From the IMG/VR virus record IMGVR_UViG_3300020120_000117, positions 1-24,397 of that record: 24,397 bases of DNA; one strand, 5' to 3'. A model generated the notes under the pieces. That model did no database searches. It saw only the letters and a program-made list of their open reading frames with translations, and was not told where the DNA came from. Source of the stretch: a virus. Taxonomy: Duplodnaviria > Caudoviricetes. This document shows positions 5,467 to 20,643 of this stretch, piece by piece. The stretch's first letter is position 1, and each line of letters starts with the position of its first letter. Made by a program: the position numbers and the translations under genes.

Positions 5467-6210
5467 CTACTCCGTCAGTCCGGTGAAGCGGTTGTAGTTG
5501 CCGCCGAGCCCGTTGCCGCGCCGCGTCTTCAGTGCCGGGTCTCCGTGCAAGAGCAGCTTCGGTGAGTTCTTCGATTCGATGAGGGCCTTCGCCTGGCTGG
5601 CCAGCATCGTCAGTTCGGGCGTGGGGCGTTTCGCGAATTCAAGCGCCAGGCGGACGGCCAGGTTCAGGACGATCGCATCTTCGTACCCGGGCGGAAGGAT
5701 GATGTTGTCGGTAAGGGCCGCGTAGGTCGAGAGCTGCTGCCAGGTGTAAAGCTCGATCGTGTAGGCGGCATCCGGAATCGGGTAAAAGTACAGCGTCGAA
5801 AGCGGGTCATTGCCGTCGTTATACAGCTCGGCCGGGAAGGTATAGACCTCCTGGAGCCGCTTCGCTGCCCACTGCTCATCCGTCATCAGGACGAGCGGCC
5901 GCCGGATGACAGGCGACTGCGAAAACTGTAAATTCGCGCTCACGATCTGGGTGGGACGCGGCGCGTTGAAGTCGGCCGTGAGGATGTGGGCCGGGTCGAT
6001 CCCGATGGTGTAGCTCTGCTTCTGGTTCGTGAGCGTGTAGGTGTCGAAGCGAACCGTGAAGGCGTTCAGTCGATCCGCGCACCAGGCGTCGAGCATCCGG
6101 CGAAGCTCTTCGAAGGAGTCCGTCAATTCATCGGTGTTCGGGATCTGCCCCTGTGCCAGCACGTTCGATTTACGGAGCGCGGCACGGATGGCATTCTGAA
6201 CCGTGATCAC
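5467..6210 (-). CDS. Head-tail adaptor (P22 gp4-like) paralog 4
   Basis: Shared motifs TVQ..I..AL, YTIG, RP..I, YFYPIP, LPPGYEDAIVLNLAVRLA. GTGA coupling. Confidence 0.82.
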   Translation of the reverse strand: MITVQNAIRAALRKSNVLAQGQIPNTDELTDSFEELRRMLDAWCADRLNAFTVRFDTYTLTNQKQSYTIGIDPAHILTADFNAPRPTQIVSANLQFSQSPVIRRPLVLMTDEQWAAKRLQEVYTFPAELYNDGNDPLSTLYFYPIPDAAYTIELYTWQQLSTYAALTDNIILPPGYEDAIVLNLAVRLALEFAKRPTPELTMLASQAKALIESKNSPKLLLHGDPALKTRRGNGLGGNYNRFTGLTE

Positions 6211-6899
6211 GCAGCCACCTTCACGGGCGCGACGGGCGGAGGCGGAGGCGGATAGAGCAGCTTGTTTTTGTTCTGGAGGGTTGCCTTGGCCAGCTCGGCA
6301 TTCGCCATCAGTTCTTTGGTCACGGGCTTGTTAAAGGCCGGGGCGAGGATCAGAGCGAGCGCGCAAATGATCGCCCATTCGTAGCCGTCGGGCAAGTTGA
6401 ACGTGTCGGAGAGCGCCGTCACATTCGGGATCGGGAGCCAGGTGAAAAGCTCAAGCGAAGAGTTCGAAGCCGCGGGAATCGGGTAAAGATAGAGCGTCGA
6501 GTTCGGGTAGGCGTAATCGTCGTAGAGCACCTTGGGCAGGGCGCTCGTGTCGGACTGCATCCCGAGTGCGTTCCATTCGTCGGCCGTCGCGAGCTTGAGC
6601 GCGCCGCGGATCGCTACCGCGTCGCCAATGACGATGGCGGCAGCCTCGATGCGCACCGGGCGAGCGGCGGTGAACGTCGCGCCCGAGGGTCCGATGGTGT
6701 AGCTCTGGGTGCCCGCGGTCAGTGAGAACGTGGACTTTGCAATCTCGTAAATGTAGAGGCCATCGTTCTCCCAGCTCGACAGCATCGCCTGGAGAAAGGG
6801 CAGTGAGGCTGCGGATTCGGAAGCGCCCGACGTCCGGCCAGGCCCGAGCCGGCCGATTTGAATCAGCGCGCGATCGATGATGTTCTGAACGGTGCTCAT
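6207..6899 (-). CDS. Head-tail adaptor (P22 gp4-like) paralog 3
   Basis: TVQNIIDRAL, YTIG, RPVRI, DYAYP, YLYPIP, LPDGYEWAI. ATGA coupling. Confidence 0.82.
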   Translation of the reverse strand: MSTVQNIIDRALIQIGRLGPGRTSGASESAASLPFLQAMLSSWENDGLYIYEIAKSTFSLTAGTQSYTIGPSGATFTAARPVRIEAAAIVIGDAVAIRGALKLATADEWNALGMQSDTSALPKVLYDDYAYPNSTLYLYPIPAASNSSLELFTWLPIPNVTALSDTFNLPDGYEWAIICALALILAPAFNKPVTKELMANAELAKATLQNKNKLLYPPPPPPVAPVKVAA

Positions 6900-7582
6900 G
6901 AGGCCTTCTTGAGGTCAGCGCCAGGCGCCGCGGGATGCTGTGGCAGGGGATCACCCGGCATGGTGTTATCGCCGAAGATCGCCTTGTTCGTCGAGATGAT
7001 TACGCCCTTCGACTGGAGCGCGAGCGCCATCATGCCTTGCGCCAGGTCGAGCCGCCCGAACTGAGTCGCGAGATCGACGGCCAGGTTCATGGTCAGTCCG
7101 CGCGCGTAGCCTGGCGGCAGGTCGATCGAGGTCGAGAGCGTGGCAAAGACCGAGAGCGGCGCGAACGTGATCAGAGTCAGTGAGGCCGTGGCCGCGGGCC
7201 ACACGTAAACGTTGCTCGTCGGATAGGCGTAGTCGCAGTACATCTTGGTCGCGTAGGTGCCTGATCGCGACTCGTCGATGATTTGCGCCCACTGCTCGGC
7301 CGAACAAACTTCAACGGGGGAACTGATGTTGCCGGAGCTGCAATAGGCCGCTTTGATTTTGAGCGGCCGGGCCGTGGTAAAAGGTCCGGCTCCCCCGGTG
7401 GCCACGGTGACTTTTTGCTCGACGGGTACAATGATCTGCTCGACTGACCAGGAGTCGATGAGCTTATTCAGGACGATCAGGCCGTCGTTACTTTCGTCCG
7501 TTGAGGGCGATTCGCCCGAGGCCAGAATCCCGAGTTCTTTCATGGCGTCGGTGATGAGCTGCTGCCCGGTGTAGGAACTCAC
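6896..7582 (-). CDS. Head-tail adaptor (P22 gp4-like) paralog 2
   Basis: TGQQLITDAM..LGIL, WSVE, RPLKI, DYAYP, LPPGY...MNLAVDLA. GTGA coupling. Confidence 0.82.
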   Translation of the reverse strand: MSSYTGQQLITDAMKELGILASGESPSTDESNDGLIVLNKLIDSWSVEQIIVPVEQKVTVATGGAGPFTTARPLKIKAAYCSSGNISSPVEVCSAEQWAQIIDESRSGTYATKMYCDYAYPTSNVYVWPAATASLTLITFAPLSVFATLSTSIDLPPGYARGLTMNLAVDLATQFGRLDLAQGMMALALQSKGVIISTNKAIFGDNTMPGDPLPQHPAAPGADLKKAS

Positions 7583-8289
7583 TGGTTCGCCTGGCCTTTC
7601 TCGATGTCAGTCATGGTGAGCGGCTGCTGCGCACTCACTCCGATCGGGGCCAACGGCTGGCCGAGCGATACGCCGTTGATCGCGGCGAGCGCCTGCTTGG
7701 CCTCGTGGGCTTTCGCTACCACCGCCTGGTCCAGATGGGAGCCAGCGAATTCGGGGGCCATGTTCACGGCAAGGTTGAAGCTGAAGGCGTCCTCGTAGCC
7801 CGGCGGGAAACTCACGGTATCCGAGATCGCGGAGAAAGCCGCGAGGGGCTTCACGCTCCACAGGTCGAGCGATCCGGAGGCCGGGGCGGGCCACAGAAAA
7901 ATGGTTGCGAGCGGAAATTGATAATCACATGCGAGCCAGTCGGCAAAAGCGCCGGTCACTCCGCGATCGATGATGGTCGCGAATTTCTCGGCACTCACGA
8001 TCTGGCAGGGCATGGAAACGGAGCCGGTGACCACGGCCGCCGCGCGGATTTTCTCCGGCCGCGACGTGTTGAAAGTTCCGGTCGATCCGATCGTGTAAGA
8101 GGCCGCACCGGTAAGTGAGAACGTCTCTTTCTTGATCTGGTAAATCGTCAGGCCTTCGATCGAGAAGGCCGAGAGCAACTGGTTGGCAAGATTCAGGCAG
8201 TTGGTGTATTCACCGGTTGCCAGACTTCTGCCCGCCTGGAGAATGCCGATTCTCCGCGCGGCTTGCTCGATGTAATCCTGGACGATCAT
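7579..8289 (-). CDS. Head-tail adaptor (P22 gp4-like) paralog 1
   Basis: VQDYIEQAA..IGIL, YTIG, RPEKI, DYQFP, FPPGYEDAFSFNLAV. Confidence 0.82.
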   Translation of the reverse strand: MIVQDYIEQAARRIGILQAGRSLATGEYTNCLNLANQLLSAFSIEGLTIYQIKKETFSLTGAASYTIGSTGTFNTSRPEKIRAAAVVTGSVSMPCQIVSAEKFATIIDRGVTGAFADWLACDYQFPLATIFLWPAPASGSLDLWSVKPLAAFSAISDTVSFPPGYEDAFSFNLAVNMAPEFAGSHLDQAVVAKAHEAKQALAAINGVSLGQPLAPIGVSAQQPLTMTDIEKGQANQ

Positions 8290-9345: not shown

Positions 9346-10590
9346 TTAGCCTTCGATCGCGCAGGCCATTTCGCCGTAGAGCTTCCCGAAGTCGTACAGC
9401 ACGTCGGCGCGGTTCACTTCCTTGCGGTAAACCGGATCGAATGCGCGGATCATGGAAATCGCGAGGCCGGTCTCTTCGTCGCGCTCGCGGGTGACCAGGG
9501 CGCCCATGCCGGGCTCGGGGTCATTCAGCGGGACGCTGACGAAGGCGAAAGCGTTCTTGTGCAGCAAGAGGGCTTGGGGCGAAGTCGTGGACGCGGGTCC
9601 ATCGACCGTGATCGCGGCGCCGTCGACGGGAGCCGAGTCAACGTTCTGATACTGGCCGGTCGGGGTGATTGCGGGTGCGATCGAGACGCTGCCGTTGCCC
9701 GATCCATCGGAGCTGAAATCGGCGAGGACAACGAAGCTCTGCAAGCGGCCAGTCGACTGGCGGGTCTGCGGATGCACGCTGAACACGTTGGCGATAGTGA
9801 AGCGATCGCCGGCCTTCAGGCGGGAAGCCGCCGCGCCGGTCCAGCCGCGCGTGGTCAGGCTCATCGTGCCGTTGTTGCCGCCATCGGCGGTCTGGGCTGC
9901 CGTCGACGCATCCACGAGCGGAGTGCCACCGTACGGGCCGGTCTTGCGGCTGTAGATGGTCTGGTCGCGGAAGACGTTATAGCCGAAGCTGTCCACCATC
10001 CGGCCCTGTTCCCATTGCTTCGAGATCGCGCCGGTCGGATTGAACAGCGTTTTCACGCCGTGCACGAAGGAGCTGGAAATCTTGCGGTTGACGATCAGGT
10101 TCAGCTCTTCGCCTTCGGGCAATCCCTGTTCGACCAGGATGTCGCCGGCGGTGAGGAACGGCAGATCGTCGGTGGGGGTGGTTCCCGGCGTTCCCGCCTG
10201 GTTCCAGGTGTTGAGTGCGATGAACTGCGCGGCTTCGGCGTTGATCTTCGAAGCGAGCGCGATCGCGAGCGGCTTCGCATACAGTTCGCGAGCTTCGCGG
10301 ATCGAGAGGGTTTTCTCCACCGAGTCCCACTCGTAGGCGACCTGGGCAACCTGGCCGACTTTGATCGGGGTCACCTGGTCGGTGAGGGACTGGGGATCAT
10401 ATTTCAGACCCTTCGAAACGGTGAAGCGGTAGGGCTTGCGAACTTCTACGCTCGCGCCCACCTTGAAACTCTTCTTCCCGAATTCGGGAGAGAGCGCGGG
10501 GGACATGTTGCGGCAAACGTTGAGGGCGTTGCCGAGGTCCATCAGGACCAATTTGGCGAACACCTGCGGGGTTAAAACAGCATTCGGCAT
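9346..10590 (-). CDS. Major capsid protein, P22 coat family (414 aa)
   Basis: MPNAVLTP...L.NAL...R, KVGASVEVRKP.RF, LKAGDRFTIANV..V.PQTRQSTG.LQ.FVV and R.DVLY motifs. GGAGGAG RBS. Confidence 0.93.
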   Translation of the reverse strand: MPNAVLTPQVFAKLVLMDLGNALNVCRNMSPALSPEFGKKSFKVGASVEVRKPYRFTVSKGLKYDPQSLTDQVTPIKVGQVAQVAYEWDSVEKTLSIREARELYAKPLAIALASKINAEAAQFIALNTWNQAGTPGTTPTDDLPFLTAGDILVEQGLPEGEELNLIVNRKISSSFVHGVKTLFNPTGAISKQWEQGRMVDSFGYNVFRDQTIYSRKTGPYGGTPLVDASTAAQTADGGNNGTMSLTTRGWTGAAASRLKAGDRFTIANVFSVHPQTRQSTGRLQSFVVLADFSSDGSGNGSVSIAPAITPTGQYQNVDSAPVDGAAITVDGPASTTSPQALLLHKNAFAFVSVPLNDPEPGMGALVTRERDEETGLAISMIRAFDPVYRKEVNRADVLYDFGKLYGEMACAIEG

Positions 10591-10598
10591 TGAATTCT

Positions 10599-10670
10599 CC
10601 TCCGCCTCGCGGCGGTGGTTTCCCGGTCTATCTCCCGACAGTCCGGGGCCTGGTCAGCCTTTCGGGCCGA
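10599..10670 (-). promoter_or_regulatory. Structured capsid leader with three GNRA-capped hairpins and the RBS
   Basis: TCGGCCC-GAAA-GGCTGA; CCCGG.CTGTC-GGGA-GATAG.CCGGG; CCGCC-GCGA-GGCGG running into AGGAG. Confidence 0.55.
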
Positions 10671-11724: not shown

Positions 11725-13926
11725 TTACGCTGCCTGCGGTTCCTGTTCAGAACCGGTGTCCGTAGTATTCATCGGCAAACTGGCGATCTGTTGTTCGTGC
11801 TGCTGCTGGATTGCCGACTGCTGGGCCTCATGGGCCTGTTGCTGCTGCTGCAAACTCTGTTCGTGTTGCTGGTCTGCCTGTTGCGTCACCGCTTCGTGCA
11901 GGCGTCCGTACTTGGCATCGAGGGCCGCGATTTCCGCGCGCAGCAGCTCGACACCCTGTTGCTGGTTCAGTTCGGCGAAAGCGATCGAGCGCTTCGTCTC
12001 TTCCTGCATCGCAACGATTCTTTCCCTCGAGGCGGATTCCACGGCCTTGGTTTCGATCTCCTGGGAGAGCGCGTGGACCTGAGCAACAAGCGCCTCGTGC
12101 TGCTGGGCCATGAACTGCATTTGCGCCTGCACCTGGGGTGGGAGCGGCTGCTGCTGGCCTTTCTGTTCCTGGAGCGCCGGCGGAAGGACTTTGCGGTAGC
12201 GTTCGGCGATGCGTTCTGAGCCGGGGGCGTCGAGCGAATCGAACAGAATATCGCCCGCGATCTGCATGAAGTTCTTGTCGGCGTTCGCGATCTGGCTGTA
12301 AACGTCGAAGGCTTCCTCACGCTGGCTGGTGTAGGACTTGCCCGTGGAGACGGCGACGCCGTATTCGCCCTGGTCGAGCTGGTGATGCACGACCTTGCCG
12401 CTTTCCGGGTCCTGGTAGGGTGTCGGCGTGTTCACCCGTACGGTGCTCGTCTTGCCGTCTTCACTCCGGACCGGGACGTTCTTTTCGCCGCGATCGATGA
12501 TCGGGATCAGTTCGAGGAGAATCCGGCCGAGACACTTACGGCTGCGAGCTTCATTGTCGTGGAAATGGAAGTTGGCGTTGTCGGCTTCTTTTTGCCGGCG
12601 CTCGATCGCGATGCCGGCGGTTTCGTTCGACTTCGCGCCCAAGCTGGCATCGAAGATTCCCATCGCCGCTTTGATCGCGTCGACGCACTGGTTATAGCCG
12701 ATGACTAACGCGCGGATCGGAGGTTCGGAGGTGACCCGTTGCGGCGCCGGCACGAGCTGCTGGGTGCCGTTCACCGTGACCACGACGGGGCGGTATTGCA
12801 CCACGGCTTGCGGGAGGTTGTTGATGTTCTCCCATTCGTCCTCGTGGTTGGCGATCTGCCCTTCGGCCGCGATGTAGGGCGTCTTCGGCATCTGCCCCAC
12901 CTGTTCGGCCATGTTGGACACGTATAGGTTGAGCAAGCGTTGAGGGTCTTTGGCGAAGCGGATCAGTGAGAGCGTCCGCCGCTTGCCGTCGACGATCATT
13001 TCGCGTCCCCACAAGGGAACGATCGGAATGTAGCTACCGAGCCACTCGGTCTCGTCCAGAATTTCTACGCCGTCGATGATGTACTGGCAGACGGTGACGC
13101 AATCTTCTTCGCGGGTTTCGAGGATCGCTTCGTCGGGAAAGTCTTTGGGCAGCTCGTCGCGGTAGGCGATGCCTTCGACGTTCATGCCGCGGGAGAGTTC
13201 GTGACGGATGCGGCAGAGAGTGCGCGTCTCGTGTTCGCGGATCCAGTATTCCGCGATCTGCACACCGCCGCCGTCTTTCCCTACCCCGATCCAGTCCGGA
13301 GCCGGGTTTTCCTGGTCGGTGTAAAACGAATTGCGGCAGAGTTCCGTCTTGTTGCCGAAGCGCCGTCGATGCTCGTCGGCTGAAATTGTGGTGAGGACGA
13401 ACCACCAGTCCGAATCAGAGCGGTCATACTCGCGCGCGTTCGGATCGCACAGAACCGAGAATTGATTCTCGATACGCTCGATGCGCAGCTCCTGGTCGAA
13501 GCTGCCTTTCTTGTAGCGGGTCGAAACGCGATAGAAGCCGCGGCCTGAGGTTACCTGTTGTTCGCGTGACGTGTCGTAGGCGATGTCTGCGTCGGACTCG
13601 TACTCGATGTGCCGGATTCGGCCCTGCAACATCTCGGCGGTTTCTTTGGTTCCCCCGTCGAGCGGGGTAAGCCGGATGGCGGGCTTCGACTGGCGGCCGT
13701 CGTTGACGACTTGCGCGGTGAAAGTCTGGAGCCGGTTTTCAGTGAGGACGGGCCGCTCGGCCGCGATGCGCTGGTCTTTGGCTTCCTTGTTCCACTGATC
13801 ACCCGCCGCAAACGCTACATCTTCGACGGCCTCTTCGCGGTCCTCGCGATCGACGGCCATCGCATACGCGAAGCGCTCCCGCGCCAGGCGCATGAATTCG
13901 GTTACGTCTTTGACTTTGCTCGGCAC
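11725..13926 (-). CDS. Portal protein, P22-like (733 aa)
   Basis: Start moved to GTG 13926, just after the upstream stop. FAAGDQW, RPVLTEN, YIPIVP, KDPQRLLN and SNETAGIAI motifs, with a Gln-rich coiled-coil C-terminus. Confidence 0.93.
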   Translation of the reverse strand: MPSKVKDVTEFMRLARERFAYAMAVDREDREEAVEDVAFAAGDQWNKEAKDQRIAAERPVLTENRLQTFTAQVVNDGRQSKPAIRLTPLDGGTKETAEMLQGRIRHIEYESDADIAYDTSREQQVTSGRGFYRVSTRYKKGSFDQELRIERIENQFSVLCDPNAREYDRSDSDWWFVLTTISADEHRRRFGNKTELCRNSFYTDQENPAPDWIGVGKDGGGVQIAEYWIREHETRTLCRIRHELSRGMNVEGIAYRDELPKDFPDEAILETREEDCVTVCQYIIDGVEILDETEWLGSYIPIVPLWGREMIVDGKRRTLSLIRFAKDPQRLLNLYVSNMAEQVGQMPKTPYIAAEGQIANHEDEWENINNLPQAVVQYRPVVVTVNGTQQLVPAPQRVTSEPPIRALVIGYNQCVDAIKAAMGIFDASLGAKSNETAGIAIERRQKEADNANFHFHDNEARSRKCLGRILLELIPIIDRGEKNVPVRSEDGKTSTVRVNTPTPYQDPESGKVVHHQLDQGEYGVAVSTGKSYTSQREEAFDVYSQIANADKNFMQIAGDILFDSLDAPGSERIAERYRKVLPPALQEQKGQQQPLPPQVQAQMQFMAQQHEALVAQVHALSQEIETKAVESASRERIVAMQEETKRSIAFAELNQQQGVELLRAEIAALDAKYGRLHEAVTQQADQQHEQSLQQQQQAHEAQQSAIQQQHEQQIASLPMNTTDTGSEQEPQAA

Positions 13927-13927
13927 C

Positions 13928-14146
13928 TTAGTTGAGGTTCTGGCCGCCCGCGCTCGTGGTCTGGTTCGTTTGCACCGTCCACATCGGGTAAGTGTTCGGC
14001 CAATACGGGTACGGCCCGTTGTAGGGAACATGTCCGCAGTGGGGGCAACGTCCGCAGTGAGGGCAGGACTGCCCGAGGAATTGCATGTAGGAGGCGGTTT
14101 GGCTGTTGCCGAGGTTGTTCAGTTGCGAGTTCTGGATGTCGTTCAT
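13928..14146 (-). CDS. Small CPHCGRCPHCG protein (72 aa)
   Basis: ATG 14146 preferred because the longer start runs through hairpins. Stop lies 1 nt before the portal GTG. Confidence 0.55.
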   Translation of the reverse strand: MNDIQNSQLNNLGNSQTASYMQFLGQSCPHCGRCPHCGHVPYNGPYPYWPNTYPMWTVQTNQTTSAGGQNLN

Positions 14147-14169
14147 AGCGTCGCGTTCATGAGGGGATG

Positions 14170-14281
14170 CCCGCGCCGGGCAAAGGAGGAAGAAAACCCG
14201 GCGCGGGGCCGTTTCGCGCGGAGGGTACGCGCTCATGAGTCGAAACGGCTACCCGGTCTGAGGAGAATTCAGCCGGGTCCG
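14170..14281 (-). ncRNA. Candidate three-hairpin small RNA or structured leader with CUCC (anti-SD) loops
   Basis: Three abutting stems at 14251-14278, 14208-14249 and 14170-14207 (11-bp perfect), directly downstream of a motif copy. Confidence 0.6.
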
Positions 14282-14298
14282 ACACCTGATCTATCGGC
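14282..14298 (-). promoter_or_regulatory. Sigma28-like late promoter motif, copy GCCGATAGATCAGGTGT
   Basis: 15/17 identical to the copy at 14596-14612. Confidence 0.65.
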
Positions 14299-14461
14299 AA
14301 TCGTCACGAAAGGCCTTGTCGAGCTTTTCGAGGTAGGTGCGGTCGTCGGAGTCGAAGTGGTGCCGGATGGTCGGGTTGCCGGTGCTCTCGCCCTGGCGCT
14401 CGGCCAGGAAGAGGTGGAGGCGCATTTCGAGATCTCGCCGCCATTTTGTGAAGGCGTTCAT
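14291..14461 (-). CDS. Small hypothetical protein (56 aa, MNAFTKWRRD...)
   Basis: ATGA coupling to the stop of 14458..14595. Confidence 0.6.
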   Translation of the reverse strand: MNAFTKWRRDLEMRLHLFLAERQGESTGNPTIRHHFDSDDRTYLEKLDKAFRDDCR

Positions 14462-14595
14462 TTGGCGGGCTTGCGGGCTTTCCCGGCTTTGCGCAGCGCG
14501 ATCGCTACCGCCTGTTTCTGCGGGCGGAAGGCGTTGATCTCGGTTTTGATGTTTTCGGAAATGACTTTGGGCGAGCTGCCTGGCTTGAGCGGCAT
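14458..14595 (-). CDS. Small basic conserved phage protein (45 aa, MPLKPGSSPKVISENIKTEINAFRPQKQAVAIALRKAGK...)
   Basis: Missed by the ORF track. It resembles the widespread MPLK.G.S...IS.NI..E....PQKQAVAIA peptide found near terminase and portal genes. Confidence 0.8.
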   Translation of the reverse strand: MPLKPGSSPKVISENIKTEINAFRPQKQAVAIALRKAGKARKPAK

Positions 14596-14612
14596 ACACC
14601 GGATTTATCGGC
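14596..14612 (-). promoter_or_regulatory. Sigma28-like late promoter motif, copy GCCGATAAATCCGGTGT
   Basis: Exact GCCGATAA. The ATG follows immediately with no SD. Confidence 0.72.
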
Positions 14613-15874: not shown

Positions 15875-16176
15875 AAAATCAGTCCGGTTACCTTCCCGTG
15901 CAACCCTGTGGCGCTGGCGAACCAGGTGAATCCGCCGGCGAACGGGTCTCCGTTCCTCGACTCCACGCTGAACCAGTCACCAGGCGCGAGCGGCTCGCCC
16001 GGCACAAGCTGAATGGGGGTAGGGATAGAACGATCTTGTACGGTTACCGTGATCGTCGAGTTCGAGGGGTTCGTGATGCGAACGCTCCTAATCCACAGGT
16101 CCGTCAAGTGCTCGTCGGTAGGAACGGTGGGCACGATCTTGTTCAAGACGAAATTGGTGTTGCCTGGCGTCTTCAC
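15871..16176 (-). CDS. Small beta-sandwich hypothetical protein, possibly virion-associated (101 aa)
   Basis: GTG start embedded in the promoter motif. Alternating beta-strand pattern. Confidence 0.7.
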   Translation of the reverse strand: MKTPGNTNFVLNKIVPTVPTDEHLTDLWIRSVRITNPSNSTITVTVQDRSIPTPIQLVPGEPLAPGDWFSVESRNGDPFAGGFTWFASATGLHGKVTGLIL

Positions 16177-16191
16177 ACTGGATTCATCGGC
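16175..16191 (-). promoter_or_regulatory. Sigma28-like late promoter motif, copy GCCGATGAATCCAGTGT
   Basis: Fills the gap after terL. The GTG start is in the same register as in the 19519 copy. Confidence 0.7.
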
Positions 16192-18480: not shown

Positions 18481-18674
18481 TGCAAACCCTCCCACGCCTT
18501 CTTCACGCGCTCCCACTGCTTCAAATCGATCACGCCGGCGCGCAGTTCTTCCACATAGTGGTTGTAGCGTTCCGCGAAGGCGTTCAGCTTCAGCTCGTCA
18601 ACCGGTGATGCCGGCGAAGTCGCGCGCGCGGCTGCGATGGCCAGAAAGCCAGAAAGACAGAAAGCGCGAATCAT
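18477..18674 (-). CDS. Small protein with possible signal peptide (65 aa)
   Basis: ATGA overlap. MIRAFCLSGFLAIAAARA leader followed by an amphipathic helical body. Confidence 0.6.
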   Translation of the reverse strand: MIRAFCLSGFLAIAAARATSPASPVDELKLNAFAERYNHYVEELRAGVIDLKQWERVKKAWEGLQ

Positions 18675-19329: not shown

Positions 19330-19520
19330 GGAAGCTCCTGGAGCATCTGGCGAAATGCCGCGATCTCGATGGCTTTGTGGACGCCGAGTTTCTTGAAAAG
19401 GGACTTCCGATAGCCGCGCACGGTGTGAAAGCTCAGTGCGAGCTGCGAAGCGATTTGCTTGTCGGTTTTGGAGTCGGCGATGAGGAGGGCAACCTCCCTC
19501 TCGCGCGGGGTCAATCTCAC
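19317..19520 (-). CDS. Stand-alone LuxR/GerE-type HTH regulator (67 aa)
   Basis: LTPREREV..LIA...TDKQIA.QL.LS..TV..Y...L.KKLGV. Confidence 0.92.
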   Translation of the reverse strand: MRLTPREREVALLIADSKTDKQIASQLALSFHTVRGYRKSLFKKLGVHKAIEIAAFRQMLQELPCKS

Positions 19521-19535
19521 ACGGGATTTATCGGC
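19519..19535 (-). promoter_or_regulatory. Sigma28-like late promoter motif, copy GCCGATAAATCCCGTGT
   Basis: Exact GCCGATAA between the sigma stop and the LuxR GTG, with no SD. Confidence 0.72.
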
Positions 19536-19542
19536 AAGCCGA

Positions 19543-20148
19543 CTATGCGACGCGCTTCTGTTCGACCAGGCGTGCGCGTGCGAGCCCGATATCGATCACG
19601 TTGCGCGCTTCTCCTGTCGAGATTCCCAGACGTCCGGCGACGTCGCGCAAGGGCCGCTCTTCCATGAACCGCATTTGGAGGGCTTCGGCTTCGTGCGGCG
19701 GTAAGTGGTCTAAGATCGAGACCACACGGCAGCGGGTTTCCACCGCCTCCGCGGCCTCGGAAGCACGGTGATCCGGGATTTCGATCCGCTCCCCATTGCC
19801 TGTTTTCCCGTAAAAATGTGGCGAACGCTCCGGATGGGCATAGGTCCGGAACTCGAATGCATCCTCCACCGACGGGTTGGAATTTTCCCGGAGATGCCGG
19901 CGCCGGACCAGCTCGAGCATTTCGCCGCGGATCCGCCTCGAGGCGAAGGTCCGGAAGCTGGCGCCTGAACCGGGCCGGTACCGGCGGGCTGCCTGCACCA
20001 GGCCGATGTGGCCCGCGCCCTGGAAATCCTCCATGGAAACCTGGGGATGGGTGCGCCTGACGATGCGCGCGATCAATTCTACGAGGTCCGTGTTTTCTTC
20101 AACTTGCCTGTGGAACGACGATGCCGGGACGGACTCCCGGCGGGGCAT
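19543..20148 (-). CDS. RNA polymerase sigma factor, FliA/WhiG (sigma28)-like, compact
   Basis: Region 2 EDFQGAGHIGLVQAARRY.P..GASFRTFASRRIRGEMLE and region 4 LP..E..AL..RF.EE..L.DVA..LGIS. The start is uncertain (ATG 20148 chosen; the frame is open to 20244). Confidence 0.88.
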   Translation of the reverse strand: MPRRESVPASSFHRQVEENTDLVELIARIVRRTHPQVSMEDFQGAGHIGLVQAARRYRPGSGASFRTFASRRIRGEMLELVRRRHLRENSNPSVEDAFEFRTYAHPERSPHFYGKTGNGERIEIPDHRASEAAEAVETRCRVVSILDHLPPHEAEALQMRFMEERPLRDVAGRLGISTGEARNVIDIGLARARLVEQKRVA

Positions 20149-20643
20149 GACGATGACGCGACCCAAGTGGCCTCTCAGAAAAACTGTATTGAACTGCTGG
20201 TGAACACTGGTACTTACGGTACTGTTTTTCACACAGGAAAACAATACCCGCCCTTTGAGGTGGCCGTTTTTCCTATTCCAATAGAAAACCGCGTTCGCTT
20301 TTCATTCGATTGTCACTTGGGGGCCATAGAGGTACCCTGACTACCATCGGTCGAGGCCGAAACGAGCGTTTGATTTGGGTTTTGGAAGGGTTTGAAGGGA
20401 CCGGCCGTTCTGGTTGACCGGCCCCCGTTGCAATAGCGGACTCACTGAAAAGAAAGCGGGTAACCGCGAGGAAACCGCCTTCATGCGAAGGGTACCACAG
20501 GGACGGAACCATCGGAATCGGATTTCAACAGGCGGGAGGCGCGCCTGGTGAACCGGTCGATCCGCGGTTTTCTCACTCCGGCATTCAAATTCGGTACTTT
20601 TTCCGTTTTTCTATCGCTGGGATCGGTGTATCATTCGATCGAT

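Follow-up and report, generated by a model that had tools for sequence, protein, structure and literature searches.

Upstream of the portal gene of a tailed phage, three small hairpins lie directly behind a promoter box, and they raise the question of whether this stretch gives rise to a regulatory RNA that controls translation of the major coat protein or forms the structured beginning of the portal message. The initial annotation had favoured a late RNA that tunes coat translation and had kept a 5' leader of a Cys peptide and portal as the alternative. The window, that is, the whole 24,397-nt stretch of DNA that was analysed, represents the late part of a P22-like phage genome, carried on the minus strand, and profile hits identified in it the portal (PF16510), scaffold, coat (PF11651), terminases, an integrase and a sigma factor. 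The phage is P22-like and has its own FliA-like sigma factor. The genes that matter most for the question are the following.

9346..10590, minus strand: major coat protein gene, P22-type (PF11651, phrog_283)
11725..13926, minus strand: portal gene, P22-like (PF16510), without a Shine-Dalgarno (SD) sequence and with a start that abuts the stop of a 72-aa ORF
19543..20244, minus strand: phage sigma factor, with a best subfamily match to FliA/WhiG that lies below the curated cut-off

The window also holds four tandem paralogous genes of 228-247 aa (5467-8289, minus strand), all assigned to phrog_12985 and one of them matching the Pfam SU10 adaptor. Comparison by blastn with 50,697 phage records returned only six weak halovirus hits of 26-32 nt (E 0.2 or worse), and the phage sigma protein had no match among the same records. 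The closest genome-borne relative, L068, is found in a Bryobacterales bacterium record (identity of 81% for coat, 65% for portal and about 40% for sigma) and, because of this, the host is probably an acidobacterium, probably of the order Bryobacterales. The sole genome found by a coat search of 401 genomes of the class was G001, and a portal search of 401 genomes of the order gave six hits, the five besides G001 having 31-41% identity and no such element on inspection. Five genomes of the likely host order were searched for RNA-binding regulators; Hfq was present in all five and CsrA in two, G001 included. Among the family contigs, L073 and L090 are one 64-kb contig with two related coat-portal clusters, whose coat ribosome binding sites (RBSs) are near-identical.

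Three predicted hairpins and their probable promoter

The locus itself is made up of these parts.

14282..14298, minus strand: sigma-28-type -10 box GCCGATAG (14298-14291) and conserved spacer, with a predicted +1 at 14283
14251..14278, minus strand: hairpin 1, loop AUUCUCC, in which 14271-14260 complements the coat RBS
14208..14249, minus strand: hairpin 2, loop UACCCUC
14170..14207, minus strand: hairpin 3, with a 12-bp stem, loop UUUCUUCCUCCUUU and no U tract after it
14143..14160, minus strand: ORF of five codons, its stop sharing bases with the following start (ATGA), that is not retained in this form in the close relative L003
13928..14146, minus strand: 72-aa Cys/Pro-rich ORF, the first gene after the hairpins, without an SD and with its frame kept, with indels, in L003

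The minus strand from 14283 to 14170 folds as three abutting hairpins with C/U-rich loops, so that the hairpins and the loops AUUCUCC, UACCCUC and UUUCUUCCUCCUUU described in the initial annotation are borne out by sequence, position and fold (z -5.1). The region 14298-14170 reaches -68.3 kcal/mol (z -5.46), a stability attained by none of 200 shuffles, and the fold from the predicted +1 has -61.8 kcal/mol (z -5.12). A CCGG stem core and a UCCUC loop are common to two of the hairpins. An Rfam scan up to E 10 gave nothing at the locus, and the sequencing runs listed as carriers included no RNA data set. The segment can be regarded as genuine, a predicted RNA structure of accessory nature whose loops carry anti-SD sequence.

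The promoter motif GCCGATRNATCMNGTGT occurs four times in the window, always on the minus strand, and in none of 100 shuffles, which upholds the motif copy annotated at 14282-14298; a fifth exact copy lies outside the window in the same phage (L110). Its first eight bases fit the -10 consensus of sigma-28 (FliA), whose promoters are described as TAAAGTTT-n11-GCCGATAA with a start 6-8 nt downstream (PMC2859248). Like those promoters, the box before the hairpins has a GCCGATAA-like -10 octamer and a predicted start 6-8 nt downstream. Unlike them, it has no visible shared -35 box (inspection revealed no TAAAGTTT at 11 nt upstream of the four aligned window copies), it carries an extra conserved spacer ending in GTGT and it is probably read by the phage-encoded sigma. 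The -10 box GCCGATAG overlaps the stop of a 56-aa ORF, and no plus-strand promoter was found near the hairpins.

In seven of the 18 listed motif-like sites (eight sequences), a GTG stands exactly 7 nt after the octamer and opens a frame of 67-238 codons, a pattern that was picked after inspection of the data. The simplest reading that these copies suggest is a leaderless mRNA. Because leaderless GTG starts lie 7 nt behind other copies of the box, the +1 of the hairpin copy is predicted at 14283, and the 5' end near this position that had been annotated thereby gains comparative support from the box repeats and the leaderless starts. The promoter is credible and likely late. Three further copies in the window belong to the set of boxes for transcripts opening at a GTG start.

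14596..14612, minus strand: upstream copy of the box, from which a transcript would cross two small ORFs into the hairpins
16175..16191, minus strand: copy with the leaderless GTG start of a 101-aa ORF
19519..19535, minus strand: copy with the leaderless GTG start of a LuxR-type ORF

The same placement of box and GTG start was seen at L381 14836, L382 12515, L077 5057 and 10335, and L002 420. Together, the GTG-start boxes may mark a partly leaderless late regulon without a visible -35 box. The box also recurs in L112 (4027, 4982 and 6001, minus-strand count) and L114 (6001), phages in which no protein matched the window genes tested, and two of the three L112 boxes were seen with a short hairpin, then a purine-rich RBS and then ATG. 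Directly behind the upstream copy in the window lies a 45-aa basic ORF (14458-14595, minus strand), relatives of which (68-75%) are found shortly before portal in L016 and L076.

No terminator-like site follows hairpin 3, so a free RNA of 110 nt would need processing. A transcript running past this hairpin would reach the 72-aa ORF and portal, both of which are without an SD. A protein search with the 72-aa ORF returned only itself; it contains a tandem CPHCGR repeat and, in L003 (3022-3282), its ends are replaced and its Cys core is kept.

Complementarity to the coat ribosome binding site

The candidate target and its surroundings are two overlapping features.

10591..10602, minus strand: coat RBS GAGGAGAAUUCA, the proposed target, which has two extra bases in a sister allele
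10591..10670, minus strand: structured coat leader (z -3.34), with two GNRA-type hairpins before the SD

The 12-nt capsid complement reported in the initial annotation is real. Positions 14271-14260 exactly complement 10602-10591; the minus strand offers the region no longer complement, and this one stops one base before the AUG. A match of at least 12 nt to any of 35 start windows, which were hand-set and three of them slightly misplaced, turned up in 100 of the 20,000 dinucleotide shuffles and, when the anti-SD cores were kept fixed, in 649 and 492 of 100,000 randomisations. The nominal p is about 0.005 before allowing for the genome-wide scan, a value that is unusual for one locus and not decisive for a hit picked from a very large scan. 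Five of the 12 bases lie in the stem of hairpin 1, and opening it costs 6.3 kcal/mol. The second annotated complement, between hairpin 2 and the RBS at 18486-18492, is present over 7 nt but at chance level, as 19,877 of 20,000 shuffles reach this length, and the label 'SMR-like' given to the gene behind it found no Pfam, PHROG or NCBIfam match.

When the loops were ranked by pairing energy over 33 hand-set phage starts, coat came first both for loop 1 (-19.9; next -11.7) and for loop 3 (-18.5; next -14.3). The coat SD is among the strongest in the phage, and any anti-SD loop would for that reason rank coat high. Over 44 distinct coat RBSs of the family, loops 1 and 3 both fit their own two alleles best, with 8 nt also reached by L076, which is without the element, and with L044 close for loop 3. 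A further comparison used 124 host starts, which are rough gene calls from 400 kb of G224, a genome of the likely host order. On this sample, none of the starts beats the window coat allele for loop 1 and one beats the sister allele, and for loop 3 one start beats either coat allele. The net energies after opening both RNAs are -5.9 (12-mer), -5.3 (loop only) and -3.6 kcal/mol (sister allele, loop only) for loop 1, and -3.7 and -2.6 kcal/mol for loop 3. Such modest modelled values would make pairing possible, not strong.

Natural variants bear on the specificity of the match. The element is kept in L003 (portal 98%) with one change, from U-G to U-A in hairpin 3, by which the pair is preserved, and the same pair-preserving change is found in the sequencing run X5. 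Hairpin 1 is unchanged in L003 and in the runs X1, X3, X4 and X5, for which no difference is listed at 14182-14302 (X4 covers only from 14208). By contrast with this constancy of the loop, the coat RBS of L007, L008 and L072 (coat 93%) is GAGGAGAACUCUCA, two bases longer, and the same two insertions are present in X1 and X4 contigs (X2 and X3 do not cover the site). Against loop 1, the sister allele retains 8 contiguous nt, at -14.6 versus -19.9 kcal/mol for the window allele. The two alleles differ by two separate bases, which jointly make or break the 12-nt match. In X1 and X4, the two runs that cover both places, loop 1 stays the same and the perfect coat match is lost with no compensating change, loop and coat RBS being on separate contigs whose linkage is deduced from depth and from there being no second loop allele. 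The perfect 12-nt match is specific to one allele, and the conservation of the capsid complementarity, by which the initial annotation had set store, largely fails, given a sister allele of 8 nt facing an unchanged loop.

The coat start has structure of its own. Coat leader hairpins also occur in relatives without the three-hairpin RNA, a GNRA hairpin stands directly before the coat SD in 12 of 44 coat leaders (with no Rfam hit), and in 11 leaders chosen for this hairpin, a selected and therefore biased set, 10 of the 15 pairs predicted showed double changes. Regulation of coat initiation in cis thus appears, by sequence comparison, more widely kept than the three-hairpin RNA. A structure of the same type recurs before another gene of the same phage (L110 5892-5981, minus strand).

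Distant relatives and known regulatory RNAs

Comparison of 40 distinct portal-upstream segments (a set that includes the window and L003 and in which three are under 450 nt) showed that, among the 38 other relatives, only L068 has a promoter box and an anti-SD hairpin (CUUCCUCC loop) before portal; in the other 37 no such element was found there. In L068, a GCCGG...CCGG stem capped by the loop UCCUUCCUCC comes after the box GCCGATGA, and two further hairpins separate it from the portal start. This first hairpin resembles hairpin 3 in loop and stem (with one G-C/C-G swap) and hairpin 1 in position, a likeness that lends comparative support to the anti-SD loops of the initial annotation. The L068 leader folds no more stably than shuffles (z -0.05), and its hairpins form only in the sense direction (-43.0 vs -36.3).

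The covariation between loop and coat RBS that the initial annotation proposed to look for in relatives was not seen in L068. The match between its loop and its own coat RBS is 7 nt long, a length equalled or exceeded by five of 44 distinct coat RBSs; by energy, its own coat RBS is outside the best six for this loop, and the loop does no better on it than on the coat RBSs of four other relatives. Another start in the L068 prophage matches the loop over 9 nt. What seems to have been kept is an anti-SD loop close to the promoter, and not a seed that covaries with coat. A covariance model would need more than the two independent sequences available. Scans of viral contigs gave no new homolog, either with the hairpin 3 pattern among the matches listed (119 new loci) or with the box and loop pattern (92 new loci). 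The latter pattern matched in 72 of 401 genomes of the phylum and, among the printed matches inspected, a like hairpin was present only in G001. A scan based on the sigma alignment found no further carrier of the element.

Three candidates were rejected. The CUCCUCCU hairpin of L030 lies within an apparent signal-peptide ORF, the 11-nt coat-RBS complement of L083 appears inside the large terminase gene, and the 16-nt complement of L108 is an inverted copy of the coat start. In this last contig, positions 1-72 hold the start of a coat gene in inverted orientation, some 1 kb ahead of the coat gene itself, either an assembly chimera or an inversion.

The initial annotation had likened the locus to the cuckoo/CcsR RNAs, which are defined as two to four adjacent hairpins with CCUCCUCCC in each loop, are alphaproteobacterial and, in the CIN1 group, adjoin a DUF1127 gene (PMC4615179, PMC8034643). 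Like them as described there, the element consists of abutting hairpins, three in number, with C/U-rich anti-SD loops, lies behind a small-protein gene and would have to be processed from a longer transcript. It differs in that none of its loops has CCUCCUCCC and the loops differ from one another, and in that it belongs to a phage of a probable Acidobacteria host, has its own promoter directly ahead and lacks an Rfam hit. No DUF1127 gene stands beside it either, the flanking 56-aa and 72-aa ORFs being without a Pfam hit. Membership of this class, set against that description, does not hold.

The nearest phage RNA in action is the c4 antisense RNA of phages P1 and P7, in which sequences carried in the loops pair close to an RBS of the phage and prevent translation (PMC12197685). 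The element shares with it a candidate pairing of a phage loop with an RBS, and no sequence likeness to c4 was found in the Rfam scan. As far as that description goes, c4 controls antirepressor synthesis in immunity, whereas the candidate target here is the coat and the RNA would be late. RNAIII and RsaE of Staphylococcus aureus likewise expose C-rich seeds in their loops that pair with the SDs of several mRNAs. Both are chromosomal, with defined 3' ends and proven targets; the pairing of the element is predicted. Phage sRNAs described so far act mostly in the lysis-lysogeny choice or on host genes. The word 'capsid' is absent from the text searched of a 2025 review (PMC12197685), and a literature search of titles and abstract openings found no sRNA against a capsid RBS.

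Possible functions of the element

The best explanation, put forward tentatively and at rather less than even confidence, is that a late promoter starts transcription at 14283, that the GC-rich hairpins persist as a 5'-derived RNA or act within a long transcript, and that loops 1 and 3 pair with strong SDs, chiefly that of coat, and slow translation. Besides the fold, the leaderless starts, the L068 counterpart and the ranking of coat, it is favoured by the 8 nt that loop 3 has in common with the 16S 3' tail of two host-order genomes and by Hfq in all five genomes searched; the modest net energies, the missing terminator and the rarity of the element before portal count against it. The hairpins would be the first 114 bases of a late transcript from the sigma-28-type promoter. 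A stable RNA might be freed by 3' trimming back to hairpin 3; alternatively, the hairpins could act in cis from within the long transcript, in which they would lie 3.7 kb ahead of the coat RBS. Loops 1 and 3 would both pair with SD sites, the coat being the best-fitting and probably not the sole partner, so that the element would be an accessory general anti-SD device and not a conserved 12-nt lock and key. Its purpose may be to restrain the synthesis of coat, whose initiation is strong, in comparison with that of portal, which has no SD. P22 uses 12 copies of portal and about 415 of coat. Of the late, coat-tuning RNA proposed at the outset, the promoter, the 5' end and the anti-SD loops have gained support, and the coat-specific lock and key has been weakened by the 8-nt sister allele and the unspecific L068 loop. 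A more specific scenario is unlikely, namely that a late small RNA is released by cleavage from the 5' part of the portal transcript, throttles the coat mRNA through two anti-SD loops and thereby determines when, or in what proportion, portal, scaffold and coat are made during head assembly, with leaderless late messages escaping.

Somewhat unlikely, and still a close rival, is the 5' leader of the Cys peptide and portal that had been named as the alternative. As a leader acting only in cis, the hairpins would protect the start of the transcript and keep the 72-aa ORF and portal, neither of which has an SD, translated at a low and constant rate; their pyrimidine loops would bind a protein, for example ribosomal protein S1, and not mRNA, and the coat match would be incidental. 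The lack of a terminator after hairpin 3, the lack of an SD at the downstream starts and the failure of the coat match to be kept all agree with such a leader, and so do two layouts in relatives. The hairpins of L068 lead straight into the portal start, and in L002 the box sits directly on it, which argues that the conserved job of the promoter is to drive portal. A leader of this kind leaves unexplained, however, why an anti-SD word is repeated in two or three hairpins and why a 12-nt match of nominal p about 0.005 is present.

It is quite improbable that the loops are primarily host-directed decoys, which would imitate the 3' end of 16S rRNA and keep host messages that depend on an SD from being translated, while late phage messages, many of them leaderless or coupled, go on. 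In two genomes of the likely host order, the 16S tail GGAUCACCUCCUUUCU does have 8 nt, CCUCCUUU, in common with the loop of hairpin 3; the anti-SD duplex is weaker than -4.5 kcal/mol at 16 of 31 phage starts, several of them leaderless; and loop 3 pairs at -10 or better with nine of the 124 rough host starts. Yet the phage's own coat RBS beats 123 of these 124 starts, which would be costly for pure host shut-off, and the host sample comes from a related genome with rough gene calls.

Slighter still are the chances of a dedicated coat-specific antisense sRNA acting through the full 12-nt duplex of hairpin 1. The exactness of the match up to one base before the AUG and the two separate allele bases that together make or break it would suit such an RNA. 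It is nevertheless largely contradicted by the uncompensated sister allele, seen in two runs and three records, by the five stem bases that must be opened and by the lack of covariation in L068.

A role for the other strand or for the DNA, as plus-strand GGA loops or as inverted repeats forming a DNA-level site, is very improbable. The plus strand folds equally well (-63.0 kcal/mol, z -4.97), its GGA loop motifs resemble CsrA-sponge RNAs and CsrA is encoded in two of the five host-order genomes, but the box before the hairpins faces down the minus strand, with no plus-strand promoter found near it, the variant U-G/U-A pair holds only on that strand and the hairpins of L068 form only in the sense direction. 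Least credible of all is a 42-codon ORF from the GTG at 14285 with the hairpins as a by-product, for although its frame is open to 14157 and the sole hairpin variant is synonymous in it, this GTG stands at offset 5, upstream of the predicted +1, offset-5 frames close within 11 codons in 11 of the 14 printed sites with a start codon there, and L068 has no like peptide.

If the hairpins are a structured leader only, they are an ordinary accessory element of two phage lineages. If the pairing with coat is true, control of coat synthesis by an RNA brake would be a further level at which tailed phages balance their head proteins, and the element would be a rare regulatory RNA from a soil Acidobacteria phage, whose natural alleles, with 12 versus 8 nt of pairing, would offer a ready-made tuning experiment.
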